From an uncultured Candidatus Saccharibacteria bacterium (GTDB taxonomy: Bacteria > Patescibacteriota > Minisyncoccia > Phycocordibacterales > UBA9973): DNA of 64,000 nt. The notes beneath the pieces were generated by a model. The model worked only from the letters and a program-made list of their open reading frames with translations. It had not been told where the DNA came from and searched no databases. Positions 2,658 through 63,332 of this stretch are shown here, piece after piece (within the stretch, counting starts at the first letter, position 1; every line of letters starts with the position of its first letter). A program made the position numbers and the translations under genes. The stretch lies in assembly GCA_964532495.1 (NCBI GenBank), contig CAZHJZ010000003.1, positions 3,658-67,657 of the forward strand, given 5' to 3'.

Positions 2658-3095
2658 CTATTTCAGAACTATCTCGCGCTTGGTTTCTGTCTTGTGGGTG
2701 AGCTTGATCAAAATATGCTTCTTCGGAAGCAACTCCCCCAGCAACTCCGGCCATTCCAAAAAGATCACGTTGCCCGCATCCCCAGCAAGGATCTCCCAAT
2801 CGATCTTAGAAGCCTCCTCCGGCTTATCTAACCGATATGCATCAATGTGATGAAACTGCTTCCAGTCTTTCTGTGCCAGCTTATAGCTCTTTCGCAGTAC
2901 GAACGTCGGGCTGATGACTTTTTCTTTAATACCCAGAAGTCTCGCAATCTCTTTTGTCAGTGTCGTCTTCCCCGCCCCCAAATCCCCCGACAACGCCACA
3001 ATGGTCGCCGCGTCTTTGTTCTTATGCTTGCTGATATATTGAATTACCAATTCAGCAATATCAGGGATTTGCGCCTCAGAGAAAACTTTTTTCAT
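2658..3095 (-). CDS. tsaE: tRNA threonylcarbamoyladenosine biosynthesis protein TsaE (P-loop ATPase)
   Basis: ALSGDLGAGKTTL Walker A motif and overall YjeE/TsaE pattern. Start chosen at internal MKKVF (residue 12 of the track ORF). Confidence 0.85.
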   Translation of the reverse strand: MKKVFSEAQIPDIAELVIQYISKHKNKDAATIVALSGDLGAGKTTLTKEIARLLGIKEKVISPTFVLRKSYKLAQKDWKQFHHIDAYRLDKPEEASKIDWEILAGDAGNVIFLEWPELLGELLPKKHILIKLTHKTETKREIVLK

Positions 3096-3351
3096 GAATT
3101 TAGAATAGCATAAAACCCACCACTGCACATTTTAGTCTCGCCTGATCGCTGAAGCTCATATTTCTCACGCGGCTCGATCCAAATTGCCTACCGTAGCCGG
3201 AAAGAACCACTTTCTCTGACCCGAGGACTGGCGGCAAAGAGCATGACGTACGTAGATACGCTCCTTGTGACGCCTCCGCAGGGTTAGAGAAAGTGGTTCT
3301 TGGAGGCATTAGGTTTTGAATGCTCGCTGATAAACTAGTTACGTACAAATA

Positions 3352-3380
3352 TAAAACCCGCTCGGCATTGAGCGGGTTTT
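3352..3380. terminator. hairpin aaaacccgctcggcattgagcgggtttt; intrinsic terminator downstream of the 3432..5798 gene
   Basis: GC stem cccgctc/gagcggg flanked by A-tract and T-tract. Lies just past the stop of the minus-strand surface protein gene. Confidence 0.6.
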
Positions 3381-3431
3381 ATAGGCATTTATCATCGTCA
3401 CATAGGCGTTAATGATAATGTGTTTGGAGGC

Positions 3432-7801: not shown

Positions 7802-7897
7802 GATTGGTTAAGTTTTAGATTTTCAGAAAAATGAGCGGAATATATAGGAACAGACGGCATGCGTCTGGGATTTCATGAGAAATTGGGTATTTATGCT

Positions 7898-9753: not shown

Positions 9754-11397
9754 TTATCCTACTTCTATCGTTGCAGGCGGTTTATCAGAGATCCGATAAT
9801 CAACGCTGCCCGCACCTTTTACGGTATTGGTAATTCTTGTTGAAACAGTTTTAAGGAATGACCACGGTAATTCTGCGAACTGCGCAGTAAATCCATTTAC
9901 GCTCCATACTGCCCATAAGCAAATCATGCGGCCAGTAGTACCACCATCGCCCTTTTGGCAAGAAACTTCCATATCAGTTACAACCGCGCCTGCTTGCCAT
10001 ACTTTTTCGTATAGCTTGTGTTTGCGCAATTCATCTATGTATATAGAATCAATTATCCGTGCAATTGCCAGCGTTTCAGCATTTACCTCGCCAATAATGC
10101 GGATAGTAAGACCTGGTCCGGGAAATGGATGGCGAACCAAGAGTTCCTCAGGAACCCCTATTTCTCTTCCCATATCGCGGGCATTATCTTTTACCATGTC
10201 ATCAAGCGGGGTAAGTTCTGGCACGCAAAACTCGTGGCCGACGTTGTGGTGCTCTTTTATTACAGCCTTCTTCACTCCAGCACTCACATACCCATGGCCG
10301 CTCTCAGAAAGATCGGTATATAGTGTTCCCTGCATAATAAATCTTGCGCCGAGGCGCTGTGCTTCTTTATTCAGAATATCGCCATACGGGCTTTTGAATG
10401 ATTTGCGCTTCTCTTTCATGGTAAATTTCCCTTTCAAAGAATCCAGAATTTGCTGCGTTGCATCTACTATATATAGCTCTATCCAACGCTCATTACCAAA
10501 AAACTTTTTCACATATGCTTCATCGTCCGGGCGATCAACGCCTTTGATGTACACTGCATATATTCTTGTTGGTAATGTACACAATTTCTTTGCCTCCTTT
10601 AAAAGATATGCGCAGATTGATGAATCGCTTCCGCCAGACAGTGCCAGCAGCACGGTTTTGCCGTCAATTTGCTTTGCTAGTTCCTCAATTTTCCGCTTAC
10701 CTACTTTCTGAGCAGGAAAACGATCCTGGGCTTTGCATATTTTGAAAATAAAATTCTCGAATATTTTAGAGCCGTATTCGGTATCGCTTACTTCGGCATG
10801 GAATTGTATTCCCACTAAATGATTATATTGAAGCGCACCTACCTCAGAATGCTCGGTTGAGCCGAGTATGCGAAGATTGTTGTCCACCTGATCCACAACT
10901 ATTTTATCTCCGTGGCTTTGTACCACGTTGAAGGTTTTTGGCAGTGAATCGAATAATATATTTTCATTAATTGGAAGTTTAGTGCTACTTTCTGCAACAG
11001 TAAACTGGTGTATGCCGAATTCGCGGTGCGTCGCAGAAACCACATTAGCTCCAACATACTTAGCTATTAGCTGGGCACCGTAACAGATTCCCAGAACAGG
11101 AATTCCTAAACCTAAAATCTTCATATCGAATGAAACCGTCCCATCACCTACTGAAGCCTGACTCCCGGAAATAAAAATTCCTTTGGGGTTAAGCTTATAT
11201 ATATCTTCTGCTGTAATCGAAGCAGGATCTATCGGCAAACAAAATACGCCAAGTTTGGCAATCTGTTGCGCGATAAGGTGATCAGTTTGGCTGCCAAGGG
11301 GAACAAGTATAAATAGCTCATCGCTACCTCTGATCTTTTGCTGTTCGGCAATTCCTTCGAGTGTTTCCTTATTTACGTCCGTAATTGTCGCTACCAT
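9754..11397 (-). CDS. guaA: GMP synthase (glutamine-hydrolysing)
   Basis: Class I glutamine amidotransferase domain (GICYGAQL with active-site Cys, HAEV His) followed by the ATP-pyrophosphatase PP-loop ALSGGSDSS and a C-terminal dimerisation domain. Start chosen at internal MVATIT. Confidence 0.9.
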   Translation of the reverse strand: MVATITDVNKETLEGIAEQQKIRGSDELFILVPLGSQTDHLIAQQIAKLGVFCLPIDPASITAEDIYKLNPKGIFISGSQASVGDGTVSFDMKILGLGIPVLGICYGAQLIAKYVGANVVSATHREFGIHQFTVAESSTKLPINENILFDSLPKTFNVVQSHGDKIVVDQVDNNLRILGSTEHSEVGALQYNHLVGIQFHAEVSDTEYGSKIFENFIFKICKAQDRFPAQKVGKRKIEELAKQIDGKTVLLALSGGSDSSICAYLLKEAKKLCTLPTRIYAVYIKGVDRPDDEAYVKKFFGNERWIELYIVDATQQILDSLKGKFTMKEKRKSFKSPYGDILNKEAQRLGARFIMQGTLYTDLSESGHGYVSAGVKKAVIKEHHNVGHEFCVPELTPLDDMVKDNARDMGREIGVPEELLVRHPFPGPGLTIRIIGEVNAETLAIARIIDSIYIDELRKHKLYEKVWQAGAVVTDMEVSCQKGDGGTTGRMICLWAVWSVNGFTAQFAELPWSFLKTVSTRITNTVKGAGSVDYRISDKPPATIEVG

Positions 11398-11486
11398 AGT
11401 CTTATATTGGTTTTTTAACGAGTGATTGAATGTCCGCACTTTACTATTCATTTTGCTATAAGTCAAAAGCTAGTTGAAATAAAAAA

Positions 11487-11520
11487 ACTCCCGTTAACCT
11501 TTCGGCTAACGGGTAGTTAT
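11487..11520. terminator. hairpin cccgttaacc-tttcgg-ctaacggg after the 11540..12169 gene
   Basis: Stem-loop with an adjacent A-run on the plus strand, which is a T-run on the transcribed minus strand. Confidence 0.5.
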
Positions 11521-14963: not shown

Positions 14964-15497
14964 ATGAGTCACTCTCAGTGGGAAAAGAAAAAAGGAAAGA
15001 AGGCCTCGCAAGGCGACACTATCAGCAAGCTCTACACGAAGCTTGTCCGCGTTATTACCCTTGAAGCCAAAAAGTCAGGCGGCAACCGCGAGAGCCCGGG
15101 CTTGAAAGTGGCTATTCAAAAAGCACGCGATGTAGATATGCCGAATGACAATATCGAGCGAGCTATCAAAAAAGCGACTGAGGCGAGCGAGCAGCTTGAG
15201 CGTATGACCTACGAAGCATACGGACCGGGCGGCGTTGGCATCATCATTGAAGCGCTATCAACAAACCGAAACAAGGCGGCGCAGGAAATCAAACACATTC
15301 TTTCTGAACATGGAACTGCATTTGCGGGTATCGGCGCGGTTACGTGGGGTTTTGCCAAAACTGACAACGAATGGGCGCCAACTATGACTATTCCCCTCTC
15401 CGACGAAGACAAAGAAAAATTGGAATTGCTTGTAGACGACCTCGAAGGCAACGATGAAGTGCAGGCCGTATTCACTAACCTGGAGGAAACGGAATGA
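14964..15497 (+). CDS. yebC: YebC/PmpR family probable transcriptional regulator (short, 177 aa)
   Basis: N-terminal SHSQWEKKKGKKASQGD...KLVRVITLEAKKSGGNRESPGLKVAIQKARDVDMPNDNIERAIKKA matches the YebC family. Its stop overlaps the ruvC start (ATGA), the conserved yebC-ruvC arrangement. Confidence 0.75.
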   Translation: MSHSQWEKKKGKKASQGDTISKLYTKLVRVITLEAKKSGGNRESPGLKVAIQKARDVDMPNDNIERAIKKATEASEQLERMTYEAYGPGGVGIIIEALSTNRNKAAQEIKHILSEHGTAFAGIGAVTWGFAKTDNEWAPTMTIPLSDEDKEKLELLVDDLEGNDEVQAVFTNLEETE

Positions 15498-16087: not shown

Positions 16088-16282
16088 ATGGATGAAGAAG
16101 TAAAAGAACCAATAATTGATGATGTTGTCGAAGGAGCAATCCCGAACCTCGATGATGCTTTTGAAGTTGAAGACCCGATCGCAGTAGAAGATGATCTCGG
16201 CGTAGTACTGACAGAAGATCTGGAAGAGGATGAGGATTTCGACGCTGATTTCTTTACAGAAGACAAAGACGGAAATTATTAA
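16088..16282 (+). CDS. small highly acidic protein (64 aa, ~40% Asp/Glu), hypothetical
   Basis: Track ORF MDEEVKEPIIDDVVEGAIPNLDDAFEVEDPIAVEDDLGVVLTEDLEEDEDFDADFFTEDKDGNY. Uncertain whether it is expressed. Confidence 0.3.
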   Translation: MDEEVKEPIIDDVVEGAIPNLDDAFEVEDPIAVEDDLGVVLTEDLEEDEDFDADFFTEDKDGNY

Positions 16283-16320
16283 GAACAGGAAAGAGAAAAG
16301 CTCACTGAACATTAGATACC

Positions 16321-16385
16321 TAGGGCGGAGGGTGTACAAAAATTTGCGAATTTAAGAGCAAATTTTTCGTACCCCGCAGCCATCG
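16321..16385. repeat. copy A of a ~60-nt conserved hairpin element (GCGGAGrG-GTACAAA-stem-GAAyTTrAGAG-stem-TTTCGTACC)
   Basis: gggcggagggtGTACAAAaatttgcGAAtTTaAGAGcaaatttTTCGTACCccgcagc. A second copy at ~61612-61675 shows compensatory base changes in the stem. Confidence 0.5.
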
Positions 16386-16414
16386 GTCTTAATGCTTGGT
16401 GAGCTTTTTGTTTT

Positions 16415-17800
16415 CTATTTAGCGAGCACTTTTACAAAGGTGAGTTTGCCGATCTTCAGTGTAACTGTTTCTGTAACTTCAAATGCAGCGTCAATGATCT
16501 TCTCCCCTGTTTCGAGGTTGGTGACTGCGCCGCCTTCGATCAGTCGTCGGAATTCGCTCTTAGACGGAACAATGCCATTGATAACCAAGAGATCTGACAG
16601 CGGTCCTCGTCCGCTGATCTCAGGAATATCTGTTGGGATTTCTTTCTTTTGGAATTTTGTAACAAAGTCCTCCTCCGCTGCTTTTGATGCCGCTTCGCCG
16701 TGGTATTCAGCGACGATTTGGCGAGCCAATTCCATTTTGAGATTCTTCGGGTTCACTTCGCTAGAACTGAGCTGCTGTTTTATTTCTTCTAATCGTTCGT
16801 ACGGAGTGTATGTGCAGAGTTCGAAGTAGTTCAAGATCGAAGTGTCGGGAATCGAAAGGATCTTGCCGTACATGTCAGCAGGTTCGTCTGTAATGCCCAC
16901 GTAGTTATCAAGGCTCTTGGACATTTTTTCTTTGCCGTCGGTTCCTTCGAGGAGTTTGAATGAGAGTACTGCCTGAAGCGCCTGATTGTTCATCTTCATA
17001 ACATCTCGTCCCATTAGCATGTTGAATGTCTGGTCTGTTCCCCCGACTTCCATGTCGCAGCTGCCGTAAATAGTAGCGAGGACGCTTGAGTCGATACCTT
17101 GGAGAACTGGGTACATCATTTCATGCATGTACAATTCCTGTCCGCTTTCGATACGGTCTTTGAACATGTCGCGTTCGATCAATCGAGCGTGCGTGATGCG
17201 TCGAAGTGTTCCGAGCACTCGGCTAAATGTCACGCTGTGAATGATTGAAGGCTGGTTGAGATGTGTTTTCTGCATTCGGGAATTTTCGTAGATGATGGCC
17301 TTGCCTATAAAACTGTTCGGCTCAACCGGGTACGTATTTTTCTCGCCGTCTCTCTCGAATGTCATCTCGGTTTTTGAGTCCGCGCCTGGCATGATATCAG
17401 CAACATCAACATACCAATCTGAGTTTCGAATCCATGAGAAAACGCTTGGGTCGGTAGAAAGGATTTTGCTGACCTGGGTAAGGTATGTCTGCATGTTTTT
17501 TTCAACTTCGAGCTGGTCTACTTCAGGACGAACCTTGCTCTTGCCTGTGGGATCACCGATCATGGTCGTATAATCGCCGACAAGGAAAATAACCTTGCAG
17601 CCCATTTCCTGGAATTTGCGGAGTTTGCGGAGAACGACGGCATGCCCAATATGCATATCGGGACGGGTAACGTCGACACCGAATTTAATGACTATTTTTT
17701 CTGGATTAGTAAGAAGCTTTTGCTTGAATGTTCCTTCTGGATCGATAAATCCTCCCACGCCTCGGGATAGCAATTCCTCTATATCTACTGCGTTTTTCAT
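16415..17800 (-). CDS. tyrS: tyrosine--tRNA ligase
   Basis: Class I aaRS motifs HIGH (PDMHIGHAV) and KMSKS, plus a C-terminal S4-like RNA-binding domain (LVINGIVPSKSEFRRLIEGGAV). Longer than typical because of insertions. Confidence 0.85.
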   Translation of the reverse strand: MKNAVDIEELLSRGVGGFIDPEGTFKQKLLTNPEKIVIKFGVDVTRPDMHIGHAVVLRKLRKFQEMGCKVIFLVGDYTTMIGDPTGKSKVRPEVDQLEVEKNMQTYLTQVSKILSTDPSVFSWIRNSDWYVDVADIMPGADSKTEMTFERDGEKNTYPVEPNSFIGKAIIYENSRMQKTHLNQPSIIHSVTFSRVLGTLRRITHARLIERDMFKDRIESGQELYMHEMMYPVLQGIDSSVLATIYGSCDMEVGGTDQTFNMLMGRDVMKMNNQALQAVLSFKLLEGTDGKEKMSKSLDNYVGITDEPADMYGKILSIPDTSILNYFELCTYTPYERLEEIKQQLSSSEVNPKNLKMELARQIVAEYHGEAASKAAEEDFVTKFQKKEIPTDIPEISGRGPLSDLLVINGIVPSKSEFRRLIEGGAVTNLETGEKIIDAAFEVTETVTLKIGKLTFVKVLAK

Positions 17801-18027
17801 ACGACAACTTTAGCATAAAAGGCCTATTTTGTCTTTTCGAGTAGCAGCAGTAAGAAAATTACTCCTCGAGCGTCTTTATTAATAAGCGGCGCGCCTACCT
17901 TCTTGATTCGATCCGGAACCTGAGCCGCGGCATTTGTGTTTGCAAGAATACAAGAGACGGATTTGGGTTCCGGATCGAGCACGGAAAAACACGATTTACT
18001 CCTTACGCATGTGGTATGATTAAAACC

Positions 18028-20820: not shown

Positions 20821-21918
20821 CTATCTGTTCATTGGCATAATAAGATACGTAAACGTAGTATCACCAACGCCTTTTACGAGAAGAGGTCGGTTTGAAGAAG
20901 TGCCTTCAAACATAATGCTGTCAGTAGGAATAGCGTTCAAACAATCAAGAAGGTATCGGTAGTTAATCACAACCGTGATTGGTTCCCCAGAAAGCGCAGC
21001 ATCGAGCGTTGCTTCGTTTTCTCCAACGTCACTGTTCTTTGCCGTAAGAACACAGCTCTTGTTTGCTGGATCAATAGCAATCGTTATCTGATTGAACTTA
21101 TCACTAAAAAGGGTGCTGGTCTTTACCGCGTTCATAAGATCGGATTTAAGAATAACCATTTCGCTCGTCTTTTCCTTTGGAAAGATTTTACGGTAATCAG
21201 GAAATACTCCATCAACAACGCGTGAAGTAATATAGTAACCATCAAAAGAAATAGAAAGGAGGTTTTTTGTTATGCAAAAAGAGAGTTCATTTGAAAGTCC
21301 GGAAATAAGACGCATAAGCTCAACTACGTTTTTGTAGGGCACGAGAATTGGCTGAAATCCATATAATCCTTTTATCTTTACTTTCTTTTCTGCGAGTCGG
21401 AATGAATCCGTAGCAACAAACGTAAGGTTGTCTTCTTCTGGGTAGATATAAATGCTGCCGATCTCTGGTTTGATGTCTGTCTGTGCTGCTGAGTAATACA
21501 CCGATTCAAGTCCATCAAGAAACGCGCTCGCTGAAATCTTTATTTTTTCTCCTTCAACTGTGGGGATGGTAGGAAAGTCTTCGTATGGAAATGTCTTAAT
21601 CTGAATTTTTGCCTGCTTGGTTTTTACCAATAGTGTTTCTCCAACTTGTTCAAGGGTTACTTCTTCATTTATCTTGCTATTAGAAAAGAATCCAGAAAGA
21701 ATAGCACCCGAAACCGCGACAACTCCTTCCTTCTCTACCTTTGCAGGTATTTCTATTTCAATACCGAGACTAAGGTTGGTTGCTCGAAGCTTCAACGATG
21801 ATCCTGATGCAATACAAAGAACAGATGAAAGAATCGGTAATGTAAGATTTTTACCGGTTACGCGTTCTGCGTGTATAAGTGCGTTCTTAACTTTTTCACT
21901 GGAGCAATGTATTTTCAT
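20821..21918 (-). CDS. dnaN: DNA polymerase III beta sliding clamp
   Basis: Three-domain beta-clamp pattern with N-terminus MKIHCSSEKVKNALIHAERVTGKNLTLPILSSVL, in canonical position after dnaA. Confidence 0.9.
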   Translation of the reverse strand: MKIHCSSEKVKNALIHAERVTGKNLTLPILSSVLCIASGSSLKLRATNLSLGIEIEIPAKVEKEGVVAVSGAILSGFFSNSKINEEVTLEQVGETLLVKTKQAKIQIKTFPYEDFPTIPTVEGEKIKISASAFLDGLESVYYSAAQTDIKPEIGSIYIYPEEDNLTFVATDSFRLAEKKVKIKGLYGFQPILVPYKNVVELMRLISGLSNELSFCITKNLLSISFDGYYITSRVVDGVFPDYRKIFPKEKTSEMVILKSDLMNAVKTSTLFSDKFNQITIAIDPANKSCVLTAKNSDVGENEATLDAALSGEPITVVINYRYLLDCLNAIPTDSIMFEGTSSNRPLLVKGVGDTTFTYLIMPMNR

Positions 21919-22127
21919 ATATATAAACTATTACTACTATTATACCTGTGGATTAGTGGATAACTTTTTCTAGGATTATTTTATAAGGGTATTTTATTCT
22001 TTTTACGTTTACTGAATTGTGTAGAACTTTTTGGAAAACATTTTAGTGTTCATATCTTATTTTTTTATCCACATCGATTTATTTTTTACACACAGCTATC
22101 AGATCTTTTATCCCAAGGATTTCCACA
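21919..22127. promoter_or_regulatory. AT-rich dnaA-dnaN intergenic region with DnaA boxes (candidate oriC / DNA-unwinding element)
   Basis: Perfect DnaA box TTATCCACA at ~22066-22074; GTGGATAAC (reverse box) at ~21953-21961; near-boxes tgtggatta and tttccacac. Long AT-rich runs in between. Confidence 0.6.
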
Positions 22128-23489
22128 CTATTTGAACATGATACGGAGCTGCTCTACTTCACTTACCAATACTGGATCGGTCTTCATATCATTTTTAATC
22201 TTGTCGCATGAGTGTATAACTGTCGTATGGTCCTTGCCGCCGAGTTTTTGTCCGATCAGTGGATATGAAACATTAAACTCTTCTCGGAGGATGTACATAA
22301 CCATTTGTCGCGCCTTCACGATCTCCTTGCGGCGTGTCTTCTCATAGATTGAATTCTCTTCAACGCTATAGAAGTCAGCAACAATCTTCACAACTTCCTT
22401 CGAAGAGATGTTTTTCTTTGGTTTAACGCTGTTTTTTATGAGGTTTTTGACTTCTGCAAGAGTGAGGGCGCGATTTCGAACCTGAGTTTGGATGACCAGC
22501 GTGTTTAGGTTTCCTTCAAGTTCTCGGATATTGCTCTCTACTGAAGCAGCAATGTATTCAAGAACGCCTTCCTCTACTGGAATCCCCCGCTCTTTGATCT
22601 TGGAGCGAAGCACAGCTACTCGTGATTCGTAATCTGGCTCAATAACATCAACGATCATTCCCTGTGAGAAACGAGAACGCAAGCGGTCTTCGAGTCCAGG
22701 AATAAAGTTTGGGTGCTTATCAGATGAAAATACGATCTGCTTGTTTGCTTCATAGAGAGTGTTGAACAAATGGAACAGTTCTTCCTGGCTTTTCTCCATT
22801 TTTCCAATGAATTGGATATCGTCCATGATAAGTACGTCGTATTTTCGGTACTTTTCTTTGAACACATGCGGCTTGTTGTTCTGAACAGAGCTGATGTAGT
22901 CCATAGCAAACTTTTCAAGAGTGATGTAGTGTACGCGCTTTTCTGGGTACTTAGCTTTTACTGCGTTTCCGAGAGACTGGATCAAGTGAGTTTTACCAAG
23001 ACCAGTGTTTCCGTACACAAAGAAAGGGTTGTATGCGCGTCCGGGCTTGCTAATAATGGCCTGTGAGGCTGCGTACGCGAGCTCATTGAATGGGCCAACG
23101 ATAAATGAGTCGAAGGTGTACTTCGGATTGAGGTTGTCATCGCGGTTGATGGGTGTTTCTACAAGAGGAAGCTCTTGAGGAGCGTCGGTTTTTGGCAAAG
23201 CAGCGTTTTCAGCCTGCTTCGCAACGCGCATTTCCGCTTTCATAATAGTGTATTCCACTGCGCGAATATGCTCAGCGACACTCATGAGAGATTTCAAAAT
23301 AAGCTTGTGGTATTTTTGGATCAGCCAGTCTTTGACGAATTCATTCGGTACGCCAACGAACACAACACCCTCTTCTTCTCGAATGACGGCCGTGTTTTTG
23401 AACCAAGTATTAAAATTTGCTTTTGAAACTTCTACTTCGATATCTTTCAAGCATCGAGCCCATAATTCGCGGGTGTCGGTTATTTCCAT
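22128..23489 (-). CDS. dnaA: chromosomal replication initiator DnaA
   Basis: AAA+ Walker A GNTGLGKTHL, DDIQF, sensor motifs, and a C-terminal DNA-binding domain (VSYPLIGQKLGGKDHTTVIHSCDKI). Confidence 0.95.
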   Translation of the reverse strand: MEITDTRELWARCLKDIEVEVSKANFNTWFKNTAVIREEEGVVFVGVPNEFVKDWLIQKYHKLILKSLMSVAEHIRAVEYTIMKAEMRVAKQAENAALPKTDAPQELPLVETPINRDDNLNPKYTFDSFIVGPFNELAYAASQAIISKPGRAYNPFFVYGNTGLGKTHLIQSLGNAVKAKYPEKRVHYITLEKFAMDYISSVQNNKPHVFKEKYRKYDVLIMDDIQFIGKMEKSQEELFHLFNTLYEANKQIVFSSDKHPNFIPGLEDRLRSRFSQGMIVDVIEPDYESRVAVLRSKIKERGIPVEEGVLEYIAASVESNIRELEGNLNTLVIQTQVRNRALTLAEVKNLIKNSVKPKKNISSKEVVKIVADFYSVEENSIYEKTRRKEIVKARQMVMYILREEFNVSYPLIGQKLGGKDHTTVIHSCDKIKNDMKTDPVLVSEVEQLRIMFK

Positions 23490-23499
23490 AGACGCTATT

Positions 23500-23575
23500 A
23501 TAGTACGGACCGAGTAATCCCGGTACTTTACACAACCTGTGTATATTGTGGGGAAAAGGTGGATAACTATTCCAC
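23500..23575. promoter_or_regulatory. dnaA upstream region: DnaA boxes plus TATAAT 7 nt before the dnaA ATG
   Basis: ggtGGATAAc (= TTATCCACC on the other strand) and ttccacagg at ~23550-23570. Minus strand reads ccgtacTATAATagcgtctATG. Confidence 0.5.
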
Positions 23576-23806
23576 AGGGTCAAAATGATTTTTCTGCCAA
23601 GGATGACATCGGAGGATTCTTTTGAAACCTAACCACGAACCTTTTGCCGCCCCGTATTTTGTGACAGCATCTTTTGCATACTCAGAACAGGTGGGAATAA
23701 AACCACAGTTCCCTCCCCGGGTGAGTCCAAGCTTCTTGGGAAGACCTTGATCGGGCGAAAGGTACTTTTGATAGAAGTTTATTAAGCCTATAAGTATATA
23801 TTTCAT
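23567..23806 (-). CDS. yidD: membrane protein insertion efficiency factor YidD
   Basis: 79 aa with a YidD-like (DUF37) Cys pattern, CGF...PTCSEYA. Overlaps the rnpA stop by 4 nt, the canonical rnpA-yidD arrangement. Confidence 0.8.
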   Translation of the reverse strand: MKYILIGLINFYQKYLSPDQGLPKKLGLTRGGNCGFIPTCSEYAKDAVTKYGAAKGSWLGFKRILRCHPWQKNHFDPVE

Positions 23807-24135
23807 TTTATTCTAGTGAAAAAGGCCTCAAGAGACTGCATTCTCTCTTGAGGCATAGCTAAAATTCCTTCTTTTTTGATTACGAAAGCATAGATACCGG
23901 GCATAAGAGCCTTATTTTTCAAGGCTTGTCTGAGGGAGGCATACCACTTGCGGCGGATGGAATTGCGCAAAACTGCTGATTTTGCAATGGTTTTTGGGGC
24001 AATAACGGCAAAACGAGAGCTTGTTTCGTCAGTTTTTATATGGCGAACAACAAAAAAAGGCGTTCCGGTCGGCTTACCGCCCTTCCATAGTTGGGTGATA
24101 TCTGCGCCAGAAAGCCTTTTTTGTTTTGAAAGCAT
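23803..24135 (-). CDS. rnpA: ribonuclease P protein component
   Basis: 110 aa, basic; RnpA RNR-like motif (NSIRRKWYASLRQAL). Immediately downstream of rpmH. Confidence 0.8.
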   Translation of the reverse strand: MLSKQKRLSGADITQLWKGGKPTGTPFFVVRHIKTDETSSRFAVIAPKTIAKSAVLRNSIRRKWYASLRQALKNKALMPGIYAFVIKKEGILAMPQERMQSLEAFFTRIK

Positions 24136-24147
24136 GAAGTTAGGGGG

Positions 24148-24282
24148 TTAGACGCTAAGTTTTGCTCGGCCTTTTCGGCGGCGGCGCTGGATGACCTTCT
24201 TGCCTGCAGTTGTACCTGTACGGACAAGAAAACCGTGTGTCGTTGCGCGCTTTTTCTTTTTTGGATTGTACGTAAATGACAT
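24148..24282 (-). CDS. rpmH: 50S ribosomal protein L34
   Basis: Manual reverse translation gives MSFTYNPKKKKRATTHGFLVRTGTTAGKKVIQRRRRKGRAKLSV, a 44-aa L34. Too short for the track ORF list. Coordinates +/-2. Confidence 0.85.
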   Translation of the reverse strand: MSFTYNPKKKKRATTHGFLVRTGTTAGKKVIQRRRRKGRAKLSV

Positions 24283-24383
24283 GGGAAGCATAATAGAACA
24301 TTTTTTGAGAAATTGCAACCCCTTAGTCGAGATGACACAAAAGAAGGATATATATTATTGACAAAGACCATAATTGTGTTATG

Positions 24384-24413
24384 ATGTAATCAATCAATAA
24401 CCTAAAATTTTAA
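24384..24413 (+). promoter_or_regulatory. promoter TATTGACAA-N16-TGtTATGAT for the 24422 gene
   Basis: atatatTATTGACAaagaccataattgTGtTATGATgt: consensus -35 and extended -10. Confidence 0.5.
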
Positions 24414-24421
24414 GACCAATT

Positions 24422-53399: not shown

Positions 53400-54485
53400 A
53401 TGAAGCTTGTTTTGACGTCTCAGTTCATTCTTTCAATTGGCCTCTTCCCCGTACTAGCCCAGGCAAGCATTTTATCGATTTTTGGTCTTGGTGAGACTGC
53501 TTCAGCCCAATCAATACCCACTTCAGCAGTACTAAACTCCCAGACCGTGGCATTATTGCAGGCTACGCTCCCTATGGACAAAGCTGACGATGAAGACGGC
53601 TTGTCTGTTGTTGCTGATAATGCTCTCTCTGCTCAGACTGGTCCTCTTGGAACACAGGCAGATTCCTCAATTGATGAAGTTGTGCCTGATTCTACTGAGA
53701 TCTATACATATGTAGTGCGAAATGGTGACAACCTTCCTGCTATTTCAAAAATGCTTGGCGTTTCCGTCGGGACGATCGTATGGGCGAACGACCTCTCCGG
53801 CAAAAATGCTAAGCTCGTTCCTGGCCAAGTTTTGGCTATTCTGCCAGTTTCTGGAATCTCGTACACGGTAAAGAAGGGCGATACTGTTTCTGGTATTGCC
53901 AAGCAGTTCAAGGTTGATGCTGATGAAATCGGCAAATTCAACGGCCTTGAGCTCGATAGCAAGCTTGCTGCTGGAGACAAAATCATTGTTCCAGGCGCTG
54001 AGCTCTCTCTTCCCGCTGCTTCGACAAAATCATCCGGAACAAAGTCTAATTCCAAGCTTCCTATTGTGGCATATGGCGCTACTCGATTGCTTCCTGGTAA
54101 TGATGGCCCTGATCTTGGTGGTTACTTCCGACGTCCTGTTGACGGCTGTACGCGAACGCAAGGCGCTCACGGTAAAAATGGTGTTGATATCGGTTGCCCA
54201 GTCGGTACTCCGATCTACGCTGCAGCAAGTGGAACGGTTTTGATAGCAAAGACTACTGGATGGAATGGAGGTTTTGGTATGTATGTGGTTATTAACCATC
54301 CAAATGGAACACAAACACTCTACGGACATATGAGCAAGGTTACAGTCTCTCCGGGGCAAGCTGTTTCAAAAGGAGAGCAGATCGGATTGATGGGTTCGAC
54401 TGGACGTTCGACCGGCAGTCATGTTCACTTTGAAGTTCACGGTGCGATAAACCCAATCGCGGTGAACGCGAGATACGGACTCTAA
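53400..54485 (+). CDS. LysM-domain M23-family peptidoglycan endopeptidase
   Basis: Two LysM repeats (YVVRNGDNLPAISKMLGVSVGTIVWAN... and YTVKKGDTVSGIAKQFKVDADEIGKFN...). M23 motifs HGKNGVDIG...GSTGRSTGSHVHFEVH. Start set at MKLVLTSQFILSIGLFPVLAQA (signal peptide); the track ORF begins at GTG 53295. Confidence 0.85.
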   Translation: MKLVLTSQFILSIGLFPVLAQASILSIFGLGETASAQSIPTSAVLNSQTVALLQATLPMDKADDEDGLSVVADNALSAQTGPLGTQADSSIDEVVPDSTEIYTYVVRNGDNLPAISKMLGVSVGTIVWANDLSGKNAKLVPGQVLAILPVSGISYTVKKGDTVSGIAKQFKVDADEIGKFNGLELDSKLAAGDKIIVPGAELSLPAASTKSSGTKSNSKLPIVAYGATRLLPGNDGPDLGGYFRRPVDGCTRTQGAHGKNGVDIGCPVGTPIYAAASGTVLIAKTTGWNGGFGMYVVINHPNGTQTLYGHMSKVTVSPGQAVSKGEQIGLMGSTGRSTGSHVHFEVHGAINPIAVNARYGL

Positions 54486-54608
54486 AACATAAAAACAAAT
54501 AGCACCTTCTAAAAGGGACGCCATAAAACTTTGCTAAGTTTTTGGCTCGTTCTCGCGCCGGCGCGCTCCGAAAGCCCTTTTAGAAGGTGCTATTTGTTTT
54601 TATGTTTT
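54484..54608. repeat. 34-bp perfect inverted repeat (aaaacataaaaacaaatagcaccttctaaaaggg ... cccttttagaaggtgctatttgtttttatgtttt) with 57-nt spacer containing palindrome cgcgccggcgcg; overlaps the stop codons of both convergent genes
   Basis: Seen directly. Probably a bidirectional terminator, but unusually long and perfect. Confidence 0.6.
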
Positions 54609-56138
54609 AGGTCGGTACTGGAGCGCTTCTAACACATGTGCTACTTCGATATCTTTTTTCCCTCCAAGGTCTGCGATAGTTCGAGCGAGCTTGATTACTC
54701 TGTGATATGCACGACCAGATAGCTGCAGCTTGCGCGCACTTTCCTCTAGAATTTTTTTAACTTCTTTGTTAAGGGTAATATAGGTCGCAAGATCTTTGGC
54801 ATGCATATCGGCATTTATTTGTATGTTGCGTGGATGAGATTGTAAACGCTTGGCTGCAAGCATTCGCGCATCCTGTACTCGTTGTTGTATTGTTGCACTG
54901 CTATCGCCTTCGTCTTTTGTGTCGATCAGTTTTTGATATTCTATTGGCGCTACGCTTATCCAGATATCGATACGATCGAGAATGGGGCCTGAGAGTCTCC
55001 GGTTGTATCTTGCGAGATCAGCGTTGGTGCAGATGCATGCGCGGATTTTTGATCCTTTATATCCGCATGGGCACGGATTCATTGCAGCAACCAAAATAAA
55101 GTTCGATGGAAATTGAGCTGAGCCACGAGCACGAGAGATGGCTATCATGTTATCTTCAAGCGGCTGGCGAAGCGACTCGACCACACGCTTTTCGAATTCC
55201 GGAAATTCATCAAGAAATAATACTCCTTTATGAGCGAGCGTAATTTCTCCAGGCCGCGGTGTTGTTCCGCCGCCGATGATGGAAACATATGACGCTGTAT
55301 GATGCGGAGCACGAAGCGGCGGATGCGTAACTAATGCTCCGTCGAGATTCCCTGCGATGGAATGGATGCGCGTGACTTCAAGAATCTCTGGCAAGCTGAG
55401 CGCGGGCAAGAGTGAAATAAATGCGCGAGCGAGCATCGTCTTGCCAGTTCCCGGCGGACCCGACATTGCGATATTGTGCCCGCCGGCTGCTGCGATCTCT
55501 AGTCCACGCTTTGCCGTTTCTTGTCCGCGGATTTCTTTCATGTCAGTGGCGTGCTGTTTTGGTAAAAGCGCGATCTCTGTTTTTGGTGTTGGTTTGATGA
55601 GGTGCGGACCTGCTGTCGTAGAAGTAACATGATCGATCACTTCCCGGAGCGTTGTTGCTGCATAGACAGTCAATCCTTCTACGAGTGCTGCTTCTGGAGC
55701 ATTTACTGCTGGGACGAATAATTCTGTCATGCCGCCGTGGCGCGCTGCTTCAGCGAGCGCTAATGTTCCCTTAATAGGTAAAATGTCTCCTGAAAGCGTG
55801 AGCTCTCCGAGAAACAATTTTGCGTGAGGATCAAACTCGATTGCTTCTGCGGCAAGCAAATAGCCCAGTGCCATTGCAAGATCAAAGCACGAACCCTCTT
55901 TTTTAATATCTGCGGGCGAAAGAGAAATTACAATCTTGTGGTTTTTTGATTTTGGAGAATCGAGTCCGCTGTTCTTGATCGCAGAACTGATACGGTCTTT
56001 GGCTTCTGCTACCGCTTTGTCTGGCAGGCCAACGACGGAAAAGGAATGCAATCCGCGCGAGAGATCTACTTCGACGCTTACAAGTTTCCCCTCAAGTAAA
56101 TATGGCTGGGCGCTATTGATGCGGGCGTATGACATCAT
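54600..56138 (-). CDS. comM: YifB/ComM-family Mg-chelatase-like AAA+ ATPase (competence protein ComM)
   Basis: Lon-like N-domain; Walker A MSGPPGTGKTMLARA; Walker B VLFLDEFPEF; arginine finger and C-terminal ChlI-like domain. Confidence 0.88.
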   Translation of the reverse strand: MMSYARINSAQPYLLEGKLVSVEVDLSRGLHSFSVVGLPDKAVAEAKDRISSAIKNSGLDSPKSKNHKIVISLSPADIKKEGSCFDLAMALGYLLAAEAIEFDPHAKLFLGELTLSGDILPIKGTLALAEAARHGGMTELFVPAVNAPEAALVEGLTVYAATTLREVIDHVTSTTAGPHLIKPTPKTEIALLPKQHATDMKEIRGQETAKRGLEIAAAGGHNIAMSGPPGTGKTMLARAFISLLPALSLPEILEVTRIHSIAGNLDGALVTHPPLRAPHHTASYVSIIGGGTTPRPGEITLAHKGVLFLDEFPEFEKRVVESLRQPLEDNMIAISRARGSAQFPSNFILVAAMNPCPCGYKGSKIRACICTNADLARYNRRLSGPILDRIDIWISVAPIEYQKLIDTKDEGDSSATIQQRVQDARMLAAKRLQSHPRNIQINADMHAKDLATYITLNKEVKKILEESARKLQLSGRAYHRVIKLARTIADLGGKKDIEVAHVLEALQYRPKT

Positions 56139-61048: not shown

Positions 61049-61552
61049 CTATCTTCCCAGCAAATACTTCTTCGGATTCTCCGACATGTCGATAAAGTCG
61101 TCTACAACTTCCTTGAGTTTCATAGATGTGGATTTGCCGAATGAGATCACTTCTACTTGCGTCATTGTCTGAAGATATTGAACAAGCGGGATGAAGTCTC
61201 CGTCACCTGAAGCGAGGATGATAGCATCGAGTCGAGGCGCCATCTTGATAGCATCAACGGCCATGCCTACGTCCCAGTCTCCCTTTTTTGCTCCGCCGGC
61301 GAAGACCTGGAGGTCTTTGGTTTTTGTTTCAATGCCCATTTTAGTGAGCGCGTCGAAAAAGTTTTTCTCATCCCCTGCTTCTGAAGTAATAACATACGCG
61401 ATGGCGCGGACGAGCTTTCGTCCTGCTACTGCGTCTTTTAATATTTGCGCGAAATTCACGCGAGCCTTATATAAATTGCGGCCGCTGTGATAGAGATTTT
61501 GTGTGTCGATAAAAAGCGCGACACGCTGTTCCTTGTGTTTGATTGCTGACAT
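61049..61552 (-). CDS. NYN-domain (LabA-like, PIN-like) protein
   Basis: VALFIDTQNLYHS...DWDVGMAVDAIKMA...DAIILASGDGDFIPLVQYLQ pattern of the NYN/LabA family. Confidence 0.7.
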   Translation of the reverse strand: MSAIKHKEQRVALFIDTQNLYHSGRNLYKARVNFAQILKDAVAGRKLVRAIAYVITSEAGDEKNFFDALTKMGIETKTKDLQVFAGGAKKGDWDVGMAVDAIKMAPRLDAIILASGDGDFIPLVQYLQTMTQVEVISFGKSTSMKLKEVVDDFIDMSENPKKYLLGR

Positions 61553-61611: not shown

Positions 61612-61675
61612 AAATTACGGTAAGCGGAGAGCGTACAAACTTTTACGAACTTGAGAGTAAAAGTTTCGTACCTTG
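61612..61675. repeat. copy B of the ~60-nt conserved hairpin element
   Basis: aagcggagagcGTACAAActtttacGAAcTTgAGAGtaaaagtTTCGTACCttgaagc. Stem positions differ from copy A in a base-pair-preserving way. Followed by two further hairpins (~61725-61775 and ~61778-61800). Confidence 0.5.
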
Positions 61676-61825
61676 AAGCTATCAAGTAACAAATATATAT
61701 TGAGCATATGATACCTGATGCCTGCGGAGGTATAAAATTTGTTCGTAAACTCACAAATTTTATACCGTCCTCCGGCGTCCCGTAACGGGAGTTTATTGGT
61801 ACTTGCCTTCATAAAGTCTAACACA

Positions 61826-61846
61826 AAATCCGCCGAAGCGGATTGT
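61826..61846 (-). terminator. rpsO terminator hairpin atccgc-cgaa-gcggat
   Basis: Stem-loop immediately after the rpsO stop, with a T-run on the minus strand. Confidence 0.55.
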
Positions 61847-62113: not shown

Positions 62114-62288
62114 AAGTATATATAAATTAGCTTGCGAAGGCTGTATTCATATGATAACACACTTCAAATAAAATTGCAATACCCTGCCTTTAGAGAGGTG
62201 TCAAGGAGGCTTAGTGATAAGATTGACATATGACATAAAATGTATTATAGTTTCTACCAAATATATTCATTCAGTAAACCCCATAGAA

Positions 62289-63332
62289 ATGAAAAACATA
62301 CTTTTTCTTCTTGTCGTTTTAATTAGCTCATCAGTTACTGCCCAAAAATATCAGCAAAATTTGAGCAAGTGGGATGAAAAGCGTCCTGTACGCAGCACTA
62401 CTAGACTTATAGTGCTTCACACAACTGAGGGTAATGATAAATCAGCACTTTCATGTGTGTGCAGGCAAGGAACATGCAATTATCTTGTTACTACGAATGG
62501 AACGATACATATTATTGTTCGTCATAATCGTATAGCAAAACACGCCGGCAGAAGCATGTGGGAAAATCGAACCAATGTTTCCAATTTTTCGATTGGCATA
62601 GAGGTTGTGGGTTACCACAACAAGCGCCCTACGGATCAGCAACTCGTTGCAATAAAGGCTCTGTTAACTAAGCTGCAGACTTTATATAAGTTATCCGATA
62701 AGGCAGTGGTTACTCATTCTATGATTGCATACGGTGCTCCTGATAAGTGGCATGCACGCAGCCATCGCGGCCGCAAGCGCTGCGCTATGTTATTTGCTAC
62801 ACGGGAAATACGGCAGAAACTTGGATTGTCGAATACTTTTTCGGCAGATCCCGATGTTCGTGCGGGACGCTTGGTGGATGCAGATCTTTATCTGAAAAAG
62901 ATTTTATACGGTGCCCAAGCCTACATAGAAAAAGAAGAAGAGTCTCCCCTTGTGGTAACTCCCCCGAAAGACGATACCGAAGAAGAAACATTCGAAGGTT
63001 TCCGCGAGATTGATTCAAAAGGGGTGTACTCAATAGCGGGTGATGAATATGACTCAGTCACTACCATCTACTTCTTTAAGGATGGAAGAGTGAGAACTGG
63101 TCACGACTTGCCTAACGATGAATTACGTACATTGCCCAAAGGTACGAAAGTGCTCGTGGGTTACGTTAATGGCGGCAAGATTACCAAAAGCCGTACCGCA
63201 TATAAAGTAGTTGGAAGAGCATGGGATTACCCTTCGACATATTATCGCTTCCCTGATGGCAGCGTTCATACCGGCGAAGAAGTTAATGGTAATCTCTTGC
63301 CAATAGGAACAATAGTATTGTTTAGAAAATAA
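62289..63332 (+). CDS. N-acetylmuramoyl-L-alanine amidase (amidase_2/PGRP fold) with signal peptide and C-terminal repeat domain
   Basis: MKNILFLLVVLISSSVTAQ; amidase_2 motifs (IVLHTTEG, CNYLVTTNGTIHIIV, SIGIEVVGYHN, AVVTHSMIAY); C-terminal tandem ~45-aa repeats (Y..DG.VRTG..L.....LPKGTKVLVGY / YRFPDGSVHTGEEVNGNLLPIGTIVLF). Confidence 0.8.
   Translation: MKNILFLLVVLISSSVTAQKYQQNLSKWDEKRPVRSTTRLIVLHTTEGNDKSALSCVCRQGTCNYLVTTNGTIHIIVRHNRIAKHAGRSMWENRTNVSNFSIGIEVVGYHNKRPTDQQLVAIKALLTKLQTLYKLSDKAVVTHSMIAYGAPDKWHARSHRGRKRCAMLFATREIRQKLGLSNTFSADPDVRAGRLVDADLYLKKILYGAQAYIEKEEESPLVVTPPKDDTEEETFEGFREIDSKGVYSIAGDEYDSVTTIYFFKDGRVRTGHDLPNDELRTLPKGTKVLVGYVNGGKITKSRTAYKVVGRAWDYPSTYYRFPDGSVHTGEEVNGNLLPIGTIVLFRK

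Follow-up and report, generated by a model that had tools for sequence, protein, structure and literature searches.

A Family of Dispersed, Imperfectly Palindromic Hairpin Repeats in the Intergenic Regions of a CPR/Patescibacteria Genome

Introduction

The genomes of CPR/Patescibacteria are small, gene-dense and thought to be poor in repeats; to our knowledge, no REP-like family has been described for this group, and literature searches returned no description of the family presented here, nor of REP-like repeats in CPR/Patescibacteria. RAYT and the Y1 transposases of IS200/IS605 read REP hairpins, or the hairpins at insertion sequence ends, as folded single strands; the REPs of E. coli also act in mRNA. 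In terms of sequence, REPs are characterized by a 5′ GTAG and by conserved stem mismatches, and are read by RAYT as folded single strands (PMC8266576), and compensatory changes are frequent in the hairpins of REPINs (PMC3116915).

The window analysed here is a continuous stretch of 64 kb from an organism whose tyrS homologues carry source names (Patescibacteria group, Minisyncoccia, Paceibacterota) that place it in the CPR. It holds four copies, A, B, C and D, all intergenic, of an element that resembles REP, BIME and REPIN sequences in being extragenic, imperfectly palindromic and interspersed, in forming single-strand hairpins with conserved stem mismatches or bulges, compensatory changes and, in some copies, the REP motif at the 5′ foot, in occurring as inverted doublets (B–C), and in being species-specific and located beyond gene 3′ ends and terminators (PMC3116915, PMC8266576). 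As in REPs, the stems have conserved irregularities, here the GRA/GNA internal loop together with a bulged pyrimidine, and the copies are intergenic in four out of four cases. The reading that we favor, at roughly even chances, is that A–D are lineage-specific, non-coding, imperfectly palindromic interspersed repeats, comparable to REP/BIME/REPIN sequences and recognized as folded strands, with a function that can be proposed only conditionally.

By comparison with REPs, whose unit is about 20–60 nt, the unit here is 85–145 nt, a size that matches REPINs and MITEs. A REPIN is one long hairpin made of two inverted REPs and a spacer, with conserved ends, a less conserved middle and compensatory changes; the present copies are long hairpins with a conserved base, a variable apex and compensatory changes, but their arms are not recognizable as independent REP palindromes. 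REPs are near-identical and number tens to hundreds per genome, whereas the present copies are 45–75% identical and number four in the 64 kb of genome covered. A conserved asymmetric 3′ tail and a 10-nt apical loop conserved in A and B further distinguish the family, and GTAG is not universal: it is exact at the hairpin foot of D (3192–3195) and of X, an element from a close strain described below, and is replaced by CTAG in A and GTAA in B and absent in C. The RAYT of a REP host is usually flanked by REPs; in the window, Pfam searches of the larger ORFs found neither a transposase nor a RAYT or Y1_Tnp domain (PF01797). On inspection, no direct repeats that could be target-site duplications flank A, B, C, D or X, no clear empty-site junction is definable, and, strain variants excepted, there is no recent burst of near-identical copies, those of the window being old and diverged. 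Because of these mismatches (no transposase in the window, no duplications, low copy number, long unit), the family is filed as a member of the general class: a new, lineage-specific bacterial interspersed palindromic repeat, a claim for which the case is about evenly balanced and which stops short of a REP/RAYT system.

Other described elements share part of this description. MITEs, Correia/NEMIS, RUP, ERIC and the Rickettsia RPE are likewise non-coding elements of ~100–150 nt, rich in inverted repeats, whose transcripts fold into long hairpins, whose insertions are polymorphic among strains and which can be nested; in the window, however, neither IS-related terminal inverted repeats nor target-site duplications nor a parent IS were identified, and the divergence among copies is compensated rather than random. 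The subterminal hairpins of IS200/IS605 and the attC sites are comparable in a different respect, as they are recognized by hairpin shape and by extrahelical or mismatched bases and not by stem sequence, in a strand-specific manner, so that stem sequence varies with pairing kept. In contrast to both, no TnpA, TnpB or IntI gene is adjacent to the present copies; the R/L box consensus of attC (RYYYAAC/GTTRRRY) is absent, and the copies are solitary and dispersed rather than arranged in cassette arrays. Finally, the TIGR arrays of Tas systems, which have been reported in parasitic bacteria, Patescibacteria among them, also alternate conserved “edge” and “loop” blocks with variable blocks of about 9–10 nt, but their spacers show no mutual pairing or covariation, come in 5–15 tandem units and adjoin a Nop-domain Tas gene (PMC12045711). 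A TIGR-Tas array was rejected here: the variable blocks are fully complementary, each pair forming a single stem, and the copies are solitary. Pfam scans of the larger ORFs of the window gave no Nop-domain match.

Location and Make-Up of Copies A and B

The cores of copies A (16323–16380) and B (61622–61679), both on the + strand, are found exactly as quoted in the original prediction, and a scan of the window for the 16-nt flank motif GCGGAGRGYGTACAAA returns exact matches at these two copies only. The full unit of copy A (16317..16402, +) scores 96 bits with the covariance model described below; from the base upwards, it is composed of the head TACCTAG, the P1 helix GGC/GCC, the internal loop GGA/GCA, the P2 helix GGG/CCC, a bulged T, the GTAC/GTAC helix, an A/T-rich stem of 9 bp and a 10-nt loop, GAATTTAAGA, and it is completed by the tail ATCGGTCTTAATGCTTGGTGA. 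The full unit of copy B (61616..61703, +; 97.6 bits) follows the same plan with the head TACGGTA, P1 AGC/GCT, internal loop GGA/GAA, P2 GAG/CTT (with one G-T pair), a bulged C, GTAC/GTAC, the stem AAACTTTTAC/GTAAAAGTTT, the loop GAACTTGAGA and a degenerate tail, ATCAAGTAACAAATATAT. The 10-nt apical loop common to both reads GAAYTTRAGA.

The gene context, assigned from ORFs and Pfam, bears out the placement claimed for both copies, intergenic near the tyrS 3′ end and between the NYN gene and rpsO. Copy A occupies a 132-nt spacer between an acidic 64-aa ORF (16088–16282, +), which follows yebC and ruvC, and the convergent tyrS (16415–17800, −), whose 3′ end borders the spacer. Copy B lies in the 297-nt spacer that leads from rpsO (62113–61850, −) to the NYN-domain gene (61552–61049, −), with pnp further downstream.

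Copy A is enclosed by an outer A-tract/stem/T-tract, AAAAGCTCAC ... GTGAGCTTTTTGTTTT (16296..16414; fold −51.8 kcal/mol, z = −6.7). This outer stem is the bidirectional terminator of the 64-aa ORF and tyrS, with copy A within its loop; lying between the terminator halves AAAAGCTCAC ... GTGAGCTTTTT, copy A therefore looks like an insertion into a terminator loop. At the other locus, rpsO has its own ordinary intrinsic terminator (AATCCGC TTCG GCGGATT followed by TTGTGTT; 61827..61844, −), and copies C and B both lie between this terminator and the NYN promoter region. Copies B and D are 60–95 nt upstream of gene starts, those of NYN and TsaE.

Several of the neighboring genes deserve a comment of their own. 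The highly acidic ORF at 16088–16282 (+), 62–64 aa long and with no Pfam match, is found between ruvC and tyrS in most related genomes examined; in one of them (L035), a 105-aa gene call takes its position. The YebC/TACO1 homologue at 14964–15497 (+) is only 177 aa long, its second/third-domain model being matched over the first third only, and this short form (174–178 aa) is also present in relatives. On the far side of tyrS, the 215-nt divergent tyrS–PBP1 spacer (17801–18015) has an inverted repeat whose two 13-nt arms are separated by 45 nt (17908–17920 / 17966–17978) and gave no match to the T-box or any other Rfam family. The NYN protein (61049–61552, −; 167 aa) is 100% identical in three more distant genomes (L001–L003), in which the DNA is only ~85% and the tyrS proteins ~71% identical. 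This pattern points to purifying selection of unusual strength on the small putative RNase encoded between rpsO and pnp, not to recent transfer, and the idea of the NYN gene as a mobile cassette linked to the element was rejected. Beyond rpsO, the amidase ORF (62214–63332) has its start at ATG 62289 and encodes 347 aa with a signal peptide.

Copies C and D and the Family Signature

The element had been described as a two-copy sequence of ~60 nt, both copies being on the same strand. A covariance model was built from the family copies and the whole window scanned with filters off, a search of the kind suggested in the original prediction. Strong matches are limited to A, B and C, whose reverse-strand matches are palindromic echoes, and the next match, local and with E = 0.33, falls at 3221–3330, a region in which direct reading revealed copy D. 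Further copies of the element do exist: with C (61701–61787, −) and D (3188–3330, +) belonging to the family, the count of two was too low, and so was the length, as the conserved unit measures ~85–145 nt and reaches beyond the 60-nt core in both directions, into a head and into a 3′ tail. The shared strand holds for A, B and D, all on +; C is inverted. Additional candidates in the window, at 7882, 11501, 22284, 32589, 35211 and 20652, were dismissed as coding sequence, ordinary terminators or chance.

Read on the − strand, copy C is TTACGGGAC-GCC-GGA-GGA-C-GGTATAAAATTTGT-GAGTTTACGA-ACAAATTTTATACC-TCC-GCA-GGC-ATCAGGTATCATATGCT. In this reverse complement, the alignment with A and B extends to the asymmetric features, namely the loop (GAGTTTACGA, compared with GAAYTTRAGA), the 3′ tail and the bulged pyrimidine. 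C is thus a copy in inverted orientation, placed tail-to-tail with B, and its tail and head motifs occur on the − strand only.

Copy D (fold −66.8 kcal/mol, z = −6.8) lies between TsaE and the ordinary bidirectional terminator of a DUF11 gene (TATAAAACCCGCTC GGCATT GAGCGGGTTTTATA; 3350..3383). It consists of the head CTACCGTA, P1 GCC/GGC, the internal loop GGA/GGA, an 18-bp stem, AAGAACCACTTTCTCTGA/TTAGAGAAAGTGGTTCTT, and the tail ATTAGGTTTTGAATGCTCGCTGA; within these, the head motif CTACCGTAGCCGGA matches exactly the head of X, the element of strain L004, and AGGCATTAGGTTTTGAATGCT matches exactly the family tail motif. The 18-bp helix above the internal loop is unrelated to the other copies and encloses an inner module with its own apex. 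Alignment and fold identify this inner core (3219..3287, +; CCC-GA-GGA-CT-GGCG...CGCC-TCC-GCA-GGG) as a second P1/internal-loop/P2 module, making D a nested copy. For the adjacent TsaE gene (2658–3128, −), the mechanical ORF start is GTG 3128, while the gene on record starts at ATG 3095 and encodes 145 aa; a fixed distance between head and start codon, considered at one stage, failed once the start was corrected to 3095.

Alignment of the copies gives (Y)TAC(C/G).. for the 5′ head and AT(C/T)RRGT-N3-5-ATGCT-N3-T(G/A)A for the 3′ tail. The RNAalifold consensus consists of a P1 of 3 bp, a 3x3 internal loop, a P2 of 3 bp, a bulge, a P3 of 4 bp, a bulge, a P4 of 9 bp and a 10-nt loop. The family signature is thus a conserved base (head, P1, symmetric 5′-GRA/3′-GNA loop, P2 and tail) surmounted by an apex of any paired sequence; strain variants aside, the copies are mutually 45–75% identical.

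Folding and Covariation

The 58-nt cores of copies A and B show 74% identity. Their 11 differences in paired columns amount to five compensatory double changes and one G-C to G-U change, with none of the 19 pairs broken. In a simulation that distributed 11 random substitutions over the 38 paired columns of A, 8 of 2,000,000 trials left every one of the 19 pairs canonical (p ~4e-6); the compensated divergence between A and B is real and not a product of chance. The hairpin folds also beat those of shuffled sequences, with z = −6.7 for A with its flanks and z = −3.0 for B.

The same holds for a set of five distinct sequences, composed of A, its counterpart A′ in strain L033, B, C and X of strain L004. 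Each of the 19 core pairs is formed in 100% of the cells, 11 of them have double-sided changes, and the observed covariation score is reached by none of 500 column shuffles; the claim that pairing rather than sequence is conserved is upheld. As a control, sliding the partners by 1–3 columns lowers pairing to 33–49%. B and C, with a core identity of 47%, keep every pair. In a direct reading with D included, P1 covaries (GGC/GCC, AGC/GCT, GCC/GGC, CCC/GGG), and the internal loop keeps its flanking G..A / G..A invariant.

Wobble pairs, of which B has one and D two or three, are found on the “forward” strand only and correspond to A-C mismatches on the other strand; folding is therefore strand-specific. 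Furthermore, in A and D the forward strand gives the more stable fold, and, together with the forward-only wobbles, this argues that whatever reads the elements reads one folded strand. The same hairpins form under DNA parameters, and the folded strand may be RNA or single-stranded DNA.

None of these hairpins corresponds to a catalogued family: the comparison with Rfam (4227 models) gave no match for the whole window at gathering thresholds and, for three loci at permissive E-values, only sub-threshold matches of the hairpin type (miRNA) or driven by terminators. A hammerhead-like CUGAUGA in the reverse-strand tail was considered and rejected, as it misfits the core and reads CUGAUGG/C.

Distribution and Strain Variation

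Two samples provide contigs of the same or a close strain: SRR12404947 in Logan, with 100% identity, and 3300043411 in JGI, with about 96% identity (strain L033). In addition, five related species (L034, L035, L039, L040 and L042) have tyrS 71–79% identical and the gene order kept. In all five, the spacer between tyrS and the acidic ORF measures 32–63 nt and contains a plain bidirectional terminator only. At the site corresponding to D, L040 has the orthologous terminator only, and L035 has the orthologous terminator, a different long palindrome and no D. This L035 palindrome (11375–11514), with 26-bp perfect arms around an 88-nt G+C-rich interior that holds two GAAA-closed hairpins, lies beyond the DUF11/CLIPPER terminator and is cut by the end of the locus; its sequence is unrelated to A–D and has no Rfam match.

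Covariance model and motif scans found no copy of the family in ~86 kb of non-redundant sequence from the five related species, where ~5 copies would be expected at the density of the window, and the rpsO–NYN spacer of the more distant genomes L001–L003 has no element. In public collections, a family pattern matched 10 loci among 185,579 species-representative genomes (the source genome not being one of them), 15 loci in JGI metagenome contigs and 3 loci in IMG/VR, and a head/tail pattern matched nothing in IMG/VR. As none of these loci was confirmed by the covariance model, all are taken as chance matches; the negative from the JGI metagenomes is weak because the known positive contig, that of L033, was not returned.

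Between close strains, the picture differs from site to site. At the A site, L033 has the same copy with three differences, none in the core helices: the bulged T is a C, the 3′ internal loop has an extra A, and one position of the outer stem is changed. At the rpsO–NYN site of strain L004, whose flanking genes are 95–98% identical to the window, a single element, X, occupies the position and orientation of B, where the window has both C and B. The core of X is 97% identical to C, and its head and tail are closer to those of B and D. Point mutation is insufficient to put a C-type core in B’s place at 2–5% divergence; this needs insertion, loss or conversion between copies, and, as read from these sequences, turnover of the rpsO–NYN arrangement outpaces point mutation. 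Separately, the Logan contigs L005 and L032 (SRR12404947) both end inside copy C, at 61755–61763, with an overlap of 9 nt only; the assembly breaks at this hairpin, which is what a repeat, a palindrome or heterogeneity among strains would be expected to cause.

Proposed Mechanism and Alternative Explanations

The kind of element is familiar, and a mechanism and function can be inferred by analogy. Each copy folds as a single strand, of ssDNA or RNA, and the resulting long hairpin has a conserved base and an apical stem that is free to change provided that pairing stays. The conserved, strand-asymmetric irregularities would then be the determinants by which a putative trans-acting protein binds folded single strands, and the family would spread, or recombine, among “safe” intergenic sites, with a presumed preference for existing hairpins and for the space just past terminators. 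As a by-product, transcribed copies would place a very stable hairpin on mRNA 3′ ends, those of tyrS and the acidic ORF in the case of copy A, where it would reinforce termination and block 3′ exonucleases.

The original prediction had left open whether the element is a small RNA, a REP-like repeat or a protein-binding hairpin; of these, the evidence gathered here favors the REP-like option. It is preferred over a gene-specific regulatory RNA on account of the occurrence of copies in both orientations at unrelated intergenic sites, the inverted B–C doublet, the nested D, the position of A inside a terminator loop, the absence from orthologous sites and the rearrangement between near-identical strains. 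Orientation is indeed independent of transcription: B and D run antisense to the genes on either side, C is sense, and A sits between convergent genes. Relative to the replication origin (dnaA at 22–23.5 kb; GC skew), the four copies show no consistent pattern.

The structured RNA explanation, which may well be wrong but is the best placed of the alternatives, regards the copies as a family of forward-strand sRNAs, or of cis modules that bind a protein through the GRA/GNA loop and the tail and control the processing or stability of the neighboring transcript; an RNase, a ribosomal protein or a chaperone would be candidate partners. Strong covariation alongside conserved unpaired purines, the apical loop kept between A and B, G-U pairs on the forward strand only and the stabler forward fold of A and D are all in keeping with it, as is a terminator-like hairpin 0–60 nt past A, D and X in the forward direction, and more distantly past B. 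C, however, has no terminator after it, no promoter is shared between copies, whether upstream of the head (in A, B, C, D and X) or outward in the tail, and orientation relative to the neighboring genes is inconsistent. The neighbors are themselves functionally unrelated (tyrS, NYN/rpsO, TsaE/DUF11), and both absence at orthologous sites in five related species and rearrangement between near-identical strains are unusual for a regulatory RNA tied to a gene; the nesting of D and the lack of an Rfam match weigh in the same direction. Since the REPs of E. coli also act in mRNA, the REP-like and structured RNA readings are not exclusive.

A more speculative proposal, and one that we hold only tentatively, is that the conserved P1-GRA/GNA-P2 module with its asymmetric head and tail could be the recognition element of an undescribed hairpin-specific system of the CPR, either a mobile hairpin element that targets hairpin or terminator loops by means of an HUH/Y1-like or other enzyme, or a dispersed class of protein-binding RNA. 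A dispersed, covarying hairpin repeat with conserved irregularities would constitute evidence for a hairpin-recognizing enzyme or an RNA-binding protein in the CPR, and, if the module is an RNA motif, it would be a new and compact protein-binding fold. The A–D family would also serve as a strain-typing marker and account for the breaks in assembly seen there; its practical value stays modest as long as neither a partner protein nor mobility is demonstrated.

It is improbable that the copies are instead double-stranded DNA sites, or cruciforms, bound by a host nucleoid protein, recombinase or regulator, with the inverted half-sites CGGAGG / CCTCCG as the operator. Short conserved blocks do stand as inverted repeats at a fixed distance, and B and D precede the NYN and TsaE starts by 60–95 nt, but A lies between two gene ends, away from promoters. 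An operator would need neither a compensated stem of 20–30 bp nor a conserved mismatched internal loop, and the stems between the half-sites vary while pairing is constant.

Slightly less probable still is the view that the copies are ordinary terminators or hairpins produced by local duplication and drift, devoid of a function as a family, in which compensation reflects selection on terminator stability or template-switch correction of palindromes. Copy A, flanked by an A-tract and a T-tract and standing in place of a plain terminator, fits this view at first sight, and the plain orthologous terminators of the clade also show compensatory changes. The tracts around A, however, belong to the outer enclosing stem; B, C and D have no T-tract, and each is found beside a separate ordinary terminator; and a terminator scan lists none of A–D. 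Moreover, the internal loop, head and tail are conserved at unlinked loci 13–58 kb apart, for which drift or stability selection is insufficient.

A peptide of 23–25 aa encoded on the reverse strand of A and B (MAAGYEKFALKFANFCTPSALGI / MIASRYETFTLKFVKVCTLSAYRNF), suggested by a frame open in both, is effectively refuted by C and X, where a 1-nt length difference brings a stop after 5–6 codons, and by D, which has no counterpart; the frame moreover has no Shine-Dalgarno sequence and would need a TTG start in B, and substitutions are not concentrated at third positions (4/3/8 by codon position).

Other Features of the Window

No tRNAs are found in the window. The genes dnaN and dnaA are on the − strand (20821–24421), with a ~930-nt non-coding stretch upstream of dnaA and a cumulative GC-skew minimum around 24–28 kb; the replication origin probably lies within the window. 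A T4SS-like gene cluster is also present. Lastly, a 129-nt palindrome at 54482–54610, of a family different from that of A–D, has 36-bp perfect arms (CTAAAACATAAAAACAAATAGCACCTTCTAAAAGGG ...) around a 57-nt interior; it is located between a convergent M23/LysM peptidase gene (ending at 54485) and a ComM/Mg-chelatase-like gene (ending at 54600), and its arms span both stop codons.
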